Of a stretch of 64,000 nt of DNA, positions 1-4,816 are shown piece by piece. The DNA is taken from the NCBI RefSeq assembly GCF_011045215.1, contig NZ_CP049202.1, one strand, 5' to 3'. The position numbers and the translations under genes are program-made. The stretch's first letter is position 1. Each line of letters starts with the position of its first letter. This DNA is from Escherichia coli (GTDB lineage: Bacteria > Pseudomonadota > Gammaproteobacteria > Enterobacterales > Enterobacteriaceae). Below the pieces are notes generated by a model. That model had not been told where the DNA came from. It saw only the letters and a list, made by a program, of their open reading frames with translations, and did not search any database.

Positions 1-11
1 CTGCTCAGGGA

Positions 12-635
12 ATGCAGGCTAACCAGCAGATATTCTTTTTATCCGACGGCGCGGATAATCTGAGGGAACTGCAGTTCGGTATGTACCCTGAGTCAATTCA
101 TGTGCTTGACTGGTTTCATATTACGATGAGGCTGACGGTGTTAATGCAGTATGCAAAGGGACTGCAGGCATCAGATCCAGCGACGGGCAGTAAGGTGTTA
201 TCGCTTCTGGAAAGCAGTAAACGATACATCTGGCACGGTAATGTTGCCACTGCACTGGATCGTATTGACGATTGCGTTATGTACTGTGATGACCCTGAAC
301 TCAACTATGCAAACCTGAAAGCCCTGCAAAAACAGCTGGATGAGATGTATACCTACATCCGTAATAATCAGATGATGATCCCAAACTACGGAGAAATGCG
401 CCGGTATGGTGAGCCAGTTTCAACAGCATTTGTAGAGTCAACAATCAACGAAGTGATCGCCCGACGAATGGCCAAAAAGCAGCAGATGCAGTGGAGTAGA
501 AAGGGGGCGCATTATTTGTTACAGACCAGAACTGCAGTCCTGAATAACGAACTACAGGACAAATTCGCCAGTTGGTATCCCGGTTGTACGACAGACGCTC
601 AGAGTAGAGGGACGTTATCCGCGATGGCAGCATAG
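12..635 (+). mobile_element. IS-element DDE transposase, C-terminal portion (ORF may run off the window start; family not resolved)
   Basis: 207-aa ORF with transposase-like composition (FLSDGADN, HVLDWFH motifs); sits inside a Tn3-family tnpA remnant. Confidence 0.45.
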
Positions 636-655
636 CTACGGCCCCAAGGTTTTTC

Positions 656-877
656 ATGCTCTCCATCTCCAACGCGATCGTTTATTACAACTCGGCGATC
701 CTGTCACGTTTGCTGAAGCGACTGGAAACAGAAGGTAATGAAAAGGCCATTGAGGCTCTGACCAGGATATCACCAGTAGCCTGGCAACACATTTTGCTGA
801 ATGGGCATTATACCTTTCAGAACAGTAATGAACTTATTGACCTGGATACATTGGTAGTCGGTTTAAAACTGGGATAG
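656..877 (+). pseudogene. Tn3-family transposase TnpA, C-terminal remnant
   Basis: 73-aa ORF matching the extreme C-terminus of Tn3-family TnpA as recalled (NAIVYYNS...ISPVAWQHILLNGHY); far too short to be functional. Confidence 0.6.
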
Positions 878-910
878 CGGAAATTTCGGCGGTTCCGGCG
901 TAGAACCCCG
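873..910. repeat. putative Tn3-family terminal inverted repeat (GGGG outer end on minus strand)
   Basis: tnpA remnant ends inside it; minus strand reads GGGGTTCTACGCCGGAACCGCC... Confidence 0.3.
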
Positions 911-1031
911 AGTAGACCCACTAAGTGATATCGGAGATATTGAGTCCGAATATGACGGTTAACAACATGATAAATAATGGTTTTTATGCTAAGAGTGAGA
1001 CTTTTGGAGGAAATGGGCGCAGAACCCCAAA

Positions 1032-1769
1032 TTAAGAAACTCTGCTTCTTTGATAAAGCTGGCTGATTATACTTACAACAGCTATACTTTTAGTTTTCTC
1101 CAAAAACTCTTCAGGCACAAATTTTTCTGAACTAAGTTCATTTTGGAGTAATGTAACAATCCTTGCTGTTTTATCTGCATATTTTTGCCATTCATTTTTT
1201 AATTCCTTAACACTCTCCTTACGCAATTCAATATCTGCATTAAGTTCGTTAACTGTCATTTTCAAAATTGATATGCTTCTCTCCAGTTGCTCATACTCAG
1301 ATTTAAGCAAAGCAGTATTAAGTTTTTCACGTTTTGCTATCTCTTCCTGCATCACCAGTTTTGTATCCTGGACAGATTGAGCTAACTTCTCAGCATTTAT
1401 CGCTTCCACTTTTTTATCTGCCGTTTCCTTCTGCATCTCATATTCAGCTATCAATGACTTTTTAAATCCTTCACGCTCCTTTGCTTCTAAATATCGTTTT
1501 GTCCATGCAATCCCATAATTTAAATATGGTGATATGACGGACAGAAAAATGCCTACTGTGACAGGAGCTACTAAATACAACCAATAGAACTTTTCAGCAC
1601 TTGTGATTTGCTCTATACGGGTAGTCACTGATGATTTACTCATAAACAGGATAGCCAGGTTTTGCCAGTTAAAGCCACACCATGAAAGGGTTATGTATCC
1701 CCATAATGGCTTTTTCAGACGCTCCTTAACAACGTCGTTTACAGAATCTGTGATTGACTCATTATTCAT
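1032..1769 (-). CDS. hypothetical protein, two predicted TM helices plus long coiled-coil
   Basis: 245-aa ORF in an AT-rich stretch; hydrophobic segments near N-terminus, then E/K/L/Q-rich heptad-like region. Confidence 0.55.
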   Translation of the reverse strand: MNNESITDSVNDVVKERLKKPLWGYITLSWCGFNWQNLAILFMSKSSVTTRIEQITSAEKFYWLYLVAPVTVGIFLSVISPYLNYGIAWTKRYLEAKEREGFKKSLIAEYEMQKETADKKVEAINAEKLAQSVQDTKLVMQEEIAKREKLNTALLKSEYEQLERSISILKMTVNELNADIELRKESVKELKNEWQKYADKTARIVTLLQNELSSEKFVPEEFLEKTKSIAVVSIISQLYQRSRVS

Positions 1770-1846
1770 TTAGAAATCCCCCTTTAACTTTGTCTCTATC
1801 ACTTACAGGAAAAGAGCCGTCGGAAAGAAAACTGCTGATTGAGATA

Positions 1847-2140
1847 TTATTTCATTCGCTCACTGGCAATATTATAAACGTTACACCGCTCTCGTTTCCC
1901 TACAGCAATCACCCATATAACAATTTCTTCATCAATGACCTTATAAATAAGCCTAAACCCAGATGCTCTCAGTTTTATTTTAAAACATCCAGCTAGATCA
2001 CCATGAAGCCTGGCAGCACCAGTGTAAGGATTATGCTGTAGTTTTCTGAGTTTCTTTTTAAACTGGTCACGTATTGTCTTGTCCAGCTTATTCCACTCTT
2101 TAAGGGCCCTTTCGTCAAAGTCGATATTAAAGGTCATCAA
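1847..2140 (-). CDS. RelE/ParE-family toxin (type II TA)
   Basis: 97-aa basic ORF with RelE/StbE-like sequence, overlapping the stop of the upstream antitoxin ORF. Confidence 0.7.
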   Translation of the reverse strand: MMTFNIDFDERALKEWNKLDKTIRDQFKKKLRKLQHNPYTGAARLHGDLAGCFKIKLRASGFRLIYKVIDEEIVIWVIAVGKRERCNVYNIASERMK

Positions 2141-2381
2141 TATTCACCCTGATGCGTCTGGCAGGATTTTTCAGTCGTTCTCTGACAATATTCAGAATAT
2201 CTTCGTCCTCATCATTATCACTGACAACAACAGACACTTCATTGAAAGGGAGTTTTTCATTTTCAGCGACATAACGGAGAAAAAGGCGGAGAGCTTCTGA
2301 AGGTGAAAGATTGAGCTTTTCGAAGACCTGCCAGGCATTTTTCTTCAGTTCTTCATCGACACGAATTTGAACAGTACTCAT
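2127..2381 (-). CDS. RelB/StbD-family antitoxin
   Basis: internal ATG at 2381 gives 84 aa (MSTVQIRVDEELKK...) with acidic C-terminus; overlaps toxin start. Confidence 0.65.
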   Translation of the reverse strand: MSTVQIRVDEELKKNAWQVFEKLNLSPSEALRLFLRYVAENEKLPFNEVSVVVSDNDEDEDILNIVRERLKNPARRIRVNIDDL

Positions 2382-3258: not shown

Positions 3259-4287
3259 CTAGTGCGGTGGCGGGGCAGCCAGCGTCAGTTCAAGCTGACG
3301 CAACTCCCTGATGGCCAGTCGCTTCAGATGGTCATCGGAACAAAAATAGGCTTCATCCGGCGGCAGACGCTTCCTGAGATACTCTGCCATCTCATGAATC
3401 TGCTGGTCGGCAGGCAGTTTCTTCAGGCGATTAGCACGCTTACAGGCTGCAGCTTTCGCCCGACGGTGTTTCAGCGCATCCTGGCTGCGCTGCAGATACC
3501 AGCGTTTTCTGGCCGCATGTACGGAGATATCTTCATCCTCACGCAGTACACCTTCCCGGATGAGCTGCTGGCGGATTTCACTTTCACGCAGCCGCTTCTG
3601 CTGCTGTTCGTGAAGTTTAACCATATCGACGCCCAGCATCTGCCACCCTGCCGGTGTTATCCAGACATAGCGCGGCAGACGCTGGCGGGTTTCACGGTCC
3701 CACATCGTTTCTTCCGACACACCCAGCACACCAAAACGTACCTGTTCGGTCAGCAGACGGGAAAGCCGGGAGACCGTCACTTCCAGTTCCGGAATAACCT
3801 TCCCCTTGCTGTCTTTCGGGCTGATTTCTCTGGCCAGACGGGAAACACTCATGCCTACGGTATGTGTGCCCGCATCACTGAAGCTGACCAGAACCGGCCA
3901 GATGGCATCGAGGAGGCGTTGTTTTTCCGGACGGAAAGCATATTTGCGACCGGCGAACGTCCGTTTCTGCACGTAAAAAGGATGCAGAGACATGTGCATG
4001 CGCAGGCTCTGTTCGCCAGTCACCGGGTCCTTTTTCACCAGGCGGTGATAAGCGTGCCCAAGCTGCCCGCTCAGCGCCTTATAGCGCGCAGGACGATACC
4101 AGGTCGGATTTTCGCATTTGGGTTTAGTGGAGTGCTCACCACGACGACGCTTTGTGCGCTTCCTTTCCGGTTCAACCAGGAAAGTGGTCGCCCTTCCCGC
4201 TTCATAATCTTCCCAGAAACGGATTTGCTCTTCGGGAGGCAACTGAGCCCAGTGGCCTGGACGGGTATTTTTAATCACCATACCCAC
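3259..4287 (-). CDS. replication-initiator-like ORF (342 aa, basic); relationship to RepA1 unresolved
   Basis: long ORF ending at the terminator and DnaA box; overlaps the RepA1-like ORF in another reading frame; opposite-strand 430-aa ORF judged a shadow. Confidence 0.45.
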
Positions 4288-4816
4288 TCCGTAAGACAGC
4301 CAGACGTGCTTCAGTCAGCGCCAACGGAAATATCCCTAAAAACTCAAAAAAACGAGGCGTCAGCGTTATTGTGCAGCGCTTATTGTAAAAATCTGATGAC
4401 GGGGAACAGACTATAAACCCAAAATCTTCTTCCAGTGATTTAATTGCTCTGACAGCTCGCTCAATGGCTAAATGACCATGAGCATTTTTTCTGGCTAATC
4501 CGCAATCAAGTGCAAGTTCGGTTATAGAACGATGCACTTGATTTGAAACAGGATCGTAGTAGAAGCACATGCCTTGCAACAGTGCATCAATAGCTCTGCG
4601 ACGAAGAACGGAAGGCTTGCGTTTACGTTTACCATTAGCGCGCGCGCACGCAGAAGCTATATCGAATGCAAATGTTTCGGTAAACCCCACCGCTTTGCCC
4701 ATTAGCTTCTCACAGAACGGCAGCGTCCTGGCACCTTCACGGGGTGTGAATACCGGATTAGGGTTCTTTACCTGACGGTAATACGTTTGTTGAAGATCAG
4801 TCACACCATCCTGCAC
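4271..4816 (-). CDS. repA1: RepA1-like replication initiator, N-terminal region (IncFII RepA family)
   Basis: N-terminus (V)[24 protein letters not shown] and [13 protein letters not shown] match IncFII RepA1 as recalled; ORF stops after 181 aa instead of about 285. Confidence 0.55.

Follow-up and report, generated by a model that had tools for sequence, protein, structure and literature searches.

Insertion sequences of the ISAzba1 group, which are of the ISKra4 type, encode a pRiA4_ORF3 protein, a serine recombinase, and a transposase (Guerillot et al. 2014, PMC3942029). Their transposases are of the Mutator-like DDE type, p-MULT 4 (PMC3942029), and the recombinase has been proposed to resolve the cointegrates of replicative transposition (PMC3942029). 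A literature search on ISKra4 and ISAzba1 found the description of the family and no target-site duplication length for the ISAzba1 group.

Layered relics of transposable elements are commonplace at the edges of the accessory regions of IncF plasmids. The locus described here is found at the left edge of a 64-kb stretch of Escherichia coli DNA, called the window in what follows. It is best explained as a stack of right-hand transposon ends that was built up by successive transposition at the edge of the accessory region in a conjugative plasmid of the F-like IncFII type, with a probability of about 0.85. Three elements make up the stack, an ISEc51-like insertion sequence (IS) at 1-664 and two transposon ends, called TnA and TnB, at 665-909 and 910-1028 (Table 1). 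Every component belongs to a well-known family, the IS to the ISEc51-like members of the ISKra4 family and the other two to the small transposons of the Tn3 family. The layering is the ordinary "junk layering" of plasmids, and no new biology is implied. No further pieces of the IS, TnA, or TnB are found elsewhere in the window.

Table 1. Positions of the transposon ends and neighboring features in the window
Feature	Position	Strand	Remarks
ISEc51-like IS, right-hand 664 bp (ISKra4 family, ISAzba1-type organization)	1-664	+	Cut by window edge
IS right terminal inverted repeat, ACGGCCCCAAGGTTTTTCATGCTCTCC	638-664	+	Compare 27-bp repeats of L001 copy
TnA remnant, last 245 bp of 4116-bp Tn3-family transposon	665-909	+	96.3% identity
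TnA terminal inverted repeat, GGGGTTCTACGCCGGAACCGCCGAAATTTCCGCTATCC, inward from 909	872-909	-	Outermost base 909
TnB remnant, last 119 bp of ~3900-bp Tn3-family transposon	910-1028	+	100% identity
TnB terminal inverted repeat, GGGGTTCTGCGCCCATTTCCTCCAAAAGTCTCACTCTT, inward from 1028	991-1028	-	Compare L003 repeat pair
AT-rich accessory segment with ORF245 (1032-1769, minus)	1029-1844	-	No PLSDB megablast match
RelE/ParE toxin	1847-2140	-	Pfam ParE_toxin 2.9e-13
RelB antitoxin	2127-2381	-	Pfam RelB 2.3e-16

The three transposon ends

The transposase reading frame of the IS (3-632, with a stop codon at 633-635) is open to the window edge and represents codons 258-467; the ATG at position 12 is internal to it. 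The 210-residue fragment matches positions 252-422 of the 422 in the NCBIfam ISKra4 transposase model NF033572 with an E-value of 1.6e-59. Its score of 202.1 bits falls under the full-length cutoff of 205 bits because the protein is cut by the window edge, while an intact relative scores 385 bits. An intact 467-residue transposase matches the fragment at 97% identity in its residues 258-467, and another protein, P0036, matches it at 100%. At the nucleotide level the IS in the window is 98.0% identical to positions 1607-2270 of an intact 2270-bp copy (L001, NZ_CP050647.1), and copies that carry the PGAP label "ISKra4-like element ISEc51 family transposase" are 96.6-97.1% identical at the DNA level. 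The intact L001 copy is flanked by perfect 27-bp inverted repeats, GGAGAGCATGAAAAACCTTGGGGCAGT, and the flanks of IS copies in at least five independent contexts diverge directly outside GGAGAGC...GCTCTCC. The IS therefore ends at position 664. When the whole window was searched for the IS repeat, the sole match was at 641-664.

The IS in the window is probably intact, its truncation being only an apparent one caused by the window edge. The nearest relative, contig L018, has the whole 2859-bp IS at the same insertion, with genes for the 467-residue transposase, a 190-residue serine recombinase, and a 202-residue pRiA4_ORF3 protein. The left IS repeat is also present in this contig, which shares the insertion of the window. 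The genes for pRiA4_ORF3 and the serine recombinase are found in the intact IS of L007 and in the IS copies of L011 and L021 as well. Two forms of the IS circulate, one of 2859 bp and one of 2270 bp that is without the recombinase gene, and the left IS repeat in L011 and L015 begins with A, not G.

The IS has probably been active recently. Transposases identical to the C-terminal 210 residues in the window are found in several unrelated contexts, which argues for recent mobility. There is no consistent target-site duplication round the other copies of the IS (flanks of L001, L007-L011, and L029). The copy at 7660-10518 of L027 has a possible 6-bp duplication, ATATTA, on both sides, and in this it is alone among the copies examined.

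TnA was identified by comparison with an intact 4116-bp element on an ETEC O169:H41 plasmid (L002 1130-5245, NZ_CP024227.1), which is nameless in the annotations seen. The intact element has a divergent resolvase gene, a 1015-residue TnpA (NF033527, 776 bits), perfect 32-bp repeats, and a 5-bp target duplication, GATCA. Window positions 665-909 align to TnA 3872-4116 with 96.3% DNA identity. Codons 946-1015 of tnpA survive (70 codons, at 665-874), and the stop codon, TAG at 875-877, lies inside the terminal repeat. The tail matches Pfam DDE_Tnp_Tn3 (PF01526) at profile positions 341-389 of 389 (E=1.8e-12), and it has five synonymous and four nonsynonymous differences from the intact copy over the 70 codons. 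Since only 70 codons are left, the transposase gene of TnA is nonfunctional. Positions 878-909 match the left repeat of intact TnA at 32 of 32 nucleotides. The right flank of TnA in the window is GAGTA (910-914); none of the relatives has the left end.

The exact 32-bp TnA repeat has isolated 100% matches in several hundred PLSDB plasmids, as judged from a sampled ranking. These solitary matches are mostly on large Klebsiella pneumoniae plasmids, at one place per record, and they suggest either that solo repeats are widespread or that a related element has the same end. A set of 739 PLSDB matches at 99% identity or more, largely from Klebsiella, proved when sampled to consist of nothing but the 32-bp repeat, and a match that seemed to continue past the repeat in E. 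albertii (L004) is a chance similarity.

TnB corresponds to an element on plasmid pFHI_NMBU_11_01 (L003 2220-6119, NZ_CP045713.1). Window positions 910-1028 are 100% identical to TnB 3782-3900 (L003 6001-6119). The tnpA gene is cut in codon 996; codons 997-1012 are at 912-959 (VDPLSDIGDIESEYDG), followed by the stop codon TAA at 960-962. Intact TnB in L003 has a divergent resolvase gene, a 1012-residue TnpA (NF033527, 604 bits), and a pair of 34-nt repeats that are 88% complementary. None of three intact TnB copies has identical 5-bp flanks (ATTAA/AATTA in L003, ATCCA/AAGGA in L048, and CTTAC/TAGTT in L049).

The terminal repeats of TnA and TnB share their first 13 nucleotides and agree at 19 of 38 positions overall. 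The motif GGGGTTCTRCGCC is found in the window solely at 897-909 and 1016-1028. The two transposases are 30% identical. This low identity, and repeats that are alike in the first 13 nucleotides only, show that TnA and TnB are distinct elements. With neither a transposase nor a resolvase and with only a single repeat each, both Tn3-family pieces are presumably inert, and they would serve at most as passive binding sites for their cognate transposases.

An ORF at 656-877 runs from the IS into TnA. Its first codons, ATG CTC TCC, come from the IS repeat, and AAGG is found 6 nt upstream. This 73-codon fusion of IS and tnpA is probably meaningless. An earlier note on this DNA had taken it as the last 73 codons of a Tn3-family tnpA. 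The tnpA tail is real, as the PF01526 match shows, and it comprises 70 codons, since the ATG at 656 sits in the IS repeat. The note had also reported the C-terminus of an IS transposase, which the NF033572 match and the identity to P0036 bear out, and it had proposed a search for IS ends, which located the right inverted repeat. The terminal inverted repeat that it placed after tnpA is confirmed by the agreement at 32 of 32 nucleotides with the left repeat of TnA in L002, with the end moved from 910 to 909. All three of these features are real and go well beyond what chance would give. The second Tn3-family end, at 910-1028, had escaped the note. The description of these sequences as remnants holds for both Tn3-family pieces and probably not for the IS, which is complete in L018 (2859 bp, three intact genes). 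An intact single element is seen, in L018, for the IS alone, and the two Tn3-family pieces are genuine remnants.

Related contigs and the order of events

Related E. coli contigs were retrieved by exact-protein look-up of ORF245, the product of the accessory gene next to TnB. At least seven of them (L011-L017) share the ORF245/TnB and TnB/TnA junctions and have no IS at the site occupied in the window. Their TnA remnant is 407 bp long (TnA 3710-4116) and is continuous over the point of the IS insertion, and the 245 bp of TnA that they share with the window have zero mismatches. The uninterrupted TnA of these contigs represents the empty site for the IS insertion. In L011, L012, and L015, the relatives that reach that far, a copy of the IS with 99.85% identity lies in the opposite orientation at a distance of about 6 kb. 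The only relative with the arrangement of the window is L018 (GCA_036881245.1, a contig found in six samples), with 2 mismatches over 2752 bp. It terminates exactly at the left IS terminus, which suggests that there are at least two IS copies in that genome. ORF245 and P0036 are both found on one contig of 167,766 bp.

The junctions are rare in curated collections, yet they are present in public draft assemblies. The strings that span the IS/TnA, TnA/TnB, and TnB/backbone junctions are absent from the genome and metagenome contig collections scanned, and none of the three junctions is found in PLSDB or in complete E. coli genomes. Look-up of two variants of a neighboring 375-residue protein gave only contigs in which TnA is free of the IS. 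About 10 kb of flanking sequence in the relatives contains neither the left half of TnA nor that of TnB, with L011 extended by another 9 kb.

Two further features of the related contigs were observed. A third Tn3-type repeat, GGGGTTCCGTGGGCATTTCTGCGATAATACACGCTAAGG, is found at 11268-11306 of L011 and also in L012-L017, and its outer end cuts TnA at 3710; it has no partner repeat within the locus. L027 is a deletion derivative of the locus (1348-1355, compared with 10458-11344 of L011), in which 887 bp have been lost and the joint has an 8-bp microhomology overlap. Both Tn3-family remnants have gone with it, as have the third repeat and the 3' portion of ORF245.

The stack was probably built in three steps. 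In the oldest, TnB, with a length of about 3.9 kb, would have come to lie next to the AT-rich accessory gene, with 3 bp between the stop codon of ORF245 and the right TnB repeat. The 4.1-kb TnA would then have joined its right repeat to TnB in tnpA codon 996 of 1012, and in the newest step the right end of the ISEc51-like IS would have been joined to TnA at tnpA codon 946 of 1015. The IS insertion is assigned to the newest step because the relatives share the TnB/TnA stack and have no IS there. Each of the junctions, at 664, 909, and 1028, is at the outermost nucleotide of a terminal repeat. Joints at the exact ends of repeats point to transposases as their makers and make random deletion endpoints improbable. 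For the TnA and TnB layers, it is the junction geometry only that points to simple insertion. The absence of the left halves of TnA and TnB from the relatives means that there were later deletions or rearrangements, or that plain nesting is not how the stack came about. As consistent duplications are found neither at other IS copies nor at intact TnB, a search for target-site footprints may be uninformative for these elements.

The source of the inserted IS was likely the near-identical copy that lies about 6 kb off on the same plasmid in the relatives. The route would have been either simple insertion of a second copy or intramolecular replicative transposition, in which the resident copy reaches TnA and the intervening segment is inverted. 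The replicative route is a variant of the best explanation that concerns the newest step only, and it would leave two IS copies in opposite orientations. It is a tentative reading with an appreciable chance of being correct, although not the favored one. The resident IS of L011, L012, and L015 has the near identity and the opposite orientation that would be expected, and the window has the predicted junction of the "a-side joined to the IS right end." In addition, the IS carries a serine recombinase of the kind suggested to resolve cointegrates (PMC3942029), and the end of L018 at the left IS terminus is expected if the genome has at least two IS copies. However, a second copy that had simply been inserted would leave the same local junctions, so that neither the window nor the end of L018 tells the two routes apart, and the look-ups of the 375-residue neighbor gave no window-type contig, on either model.

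Instead of transposition into resident elements, deletion or recombination between unrelated DNA segments, whether illegitimate or homologous, could have made the junctions. The missing left halves of TnA and TnB in the flanks of the relatives would agree with such an origin, and L027, which lacks 887 bp at an 8-bp microhomology, shows that a deletion derivative of the locus exists. This origin is unlikely nevertheless, given that all three junctions are at exact outermost repeat nucleotides and that an empty IS site is present in the relatives.

Successive transposition, the preferred explanation, leaves room for a preference in the choice of target. Heterologous Tn3-family elements and this resolvase-carrying IS might be attracted to resident Tn3-family transposons, at the end nearest the repeat. 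The joints of the newcomers (TnA in TnB, the IS in TnA, and the third repeat in TnA) are all within the last 120-410 bp of the resident tnpA, and the outer ends of the stacked newcomers all face the same way. It is this recurrence of joints near the repeat-proximal end of tnpA, in the same direction, that raises the idea of attraction; chance plus deletion is the alternative to it, and attraction seems quite unlikely.

In the Tn3 family, one repeat alone can confer target immunity. The solitary repeats of TnA and TnB might therefore have been kept for a function, either in transposition immunity or in one-ended transposition. The 38-bp ends of both remnants are intact, the window and contigs of the L011 type do not differ in the TnA remnant that they share, and the exact 32-bp TnA repeat occurs widely on its own. 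Retention for function is very unlikely all the same. There is no sign of selection in the tnpA remnant, where the 70 codons have four nonsynonymous and five synonymous changes, and the whole stack is missing from L027.

The accessory segment and the backbone boundary

Between the TnB repeat and the conserved part of the plasmid is a segment with 33-39% GC, at 1029-1844, that contains the gene for ORF245. This protein of 245 residues has no match in Pfam or NCBIfam, and its PADLOC matches are weak, none of them convincing. On visual inspection its N-terminal part shows hydrophobic stretches, and its C-terminal half is long and charged and resembles a coiled coil. The cluster of the exact protein has seven members, which are always beside RelE and which have the TnB repeat wherever the contig extends far enough. 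Megablast similarity to IncF plasmids starts at 1842-1847. By this measure the RelE/ParE-RelB pair is the first IncF-conserved sequence, and it marks the true boundary of the backbone. Beyond RelE and RelB are IncFII repA and then the tra region.

Two IncFII_repA-like ORFs are found on the minus strand at 3259-4287 (342 residues) and 4271-4816 (181 residues). They are adjacent and overlapping, and a repA-like pair of 340 and 177 residues is arranged likewise in the relatives L039 and L045. This suggests that the repA region may be mosaic or partly duplicated.

The earlier note was right that the IS had inserted into an older transposon: the 664/665 junction is at the terminal base of the IS, and the site without the IS is present in L011-L017. 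It went wrong in placing the end of that transposon against the plasmid backbone, as TnA abuts the 119-bp end of a second Tn3-family transposon, which is followed by a rare accessory gene. A model with only two layers, in which the IS lies within a single Tn3-family transposon whose repeat is directly against the backbone, fits the IS and TnA parts as first described and is almost certainly wrong, refuted by the TnB end at 910-1028, where the last 119 bp of a different Tn3-family element are present at 100% identity together with that element's own repeat, and by the sequence at 1029-1844, which is unmatched in PLSDB. IncF homology begins only near 1845.

On the other side of the stack, the genes also vary among the related contigs. 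Past the third Tn3-type repeat are about 5.8 kb of uncharacterized genes, whose products have 375, 242, 276 (DUF7946), 148, 85, and 140 residues. The cargo genes of the relatives have no convincing match in PADLOC, Pfam, or NCBIfam. The cargo of L027 includes Abi_2 and DpnII-MboI, and L029 has GmrSD beside the IS. Overall the region from RelBE to the IS appears to be a slot for variable, defense-flavored cargo.

The stack marks where the IncFII/RelBE backbone gives way to the variable cargo region. As a lineage marker, the TnB/TnA junction unites a small family of plasmid contigs from E. coli, within which the IS insertion sets apart a younger sublineage. The ISEc51-like IS, which looks recently active, could bring about more rearrangement at this border. 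For annotation, the 73-codon ORF should be treated as an artifact of the IS/tnpA fusion, two Tn3-family relics should be counted instead of one, and the term remnant should not be applied to the IS.

Comparison with known elements

The IS resembles the ISEc51/ISAzba1 group in having the same NF033572 match, terminal repeats of about 27 bp, and genes for pRiA4_ORF3, a serine recombinase, and a transposase. The window holds only the last 664 bp of the IS. The likeness to ISEc51 was gauged from PGAP-labelled copies.

TnA is like the 4116-bp element of NZ_CP024227.1 in its transposase type, of about 1015 residues, and in its repeats, which begin with GGGG. In contrast to the intact reference, the copy in the window lacks the catalytic domain, the resolvase gene and res site, and the left repeat. 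The TnA repeat differs from that of classical Tn3 in being without the terminal TAAG, while the layout of the element, with divergent tnpR and tnpA, is like that of Tn3 and gamma-delta. TnB is likewise the end of a known kind of element, the unnamed 3900-bp transposon of pFHI_NMBU_11_01, which is also present on E. albertii and Salmonella plasmids and has repeats of about 34-38 bp that begin with GGGG.
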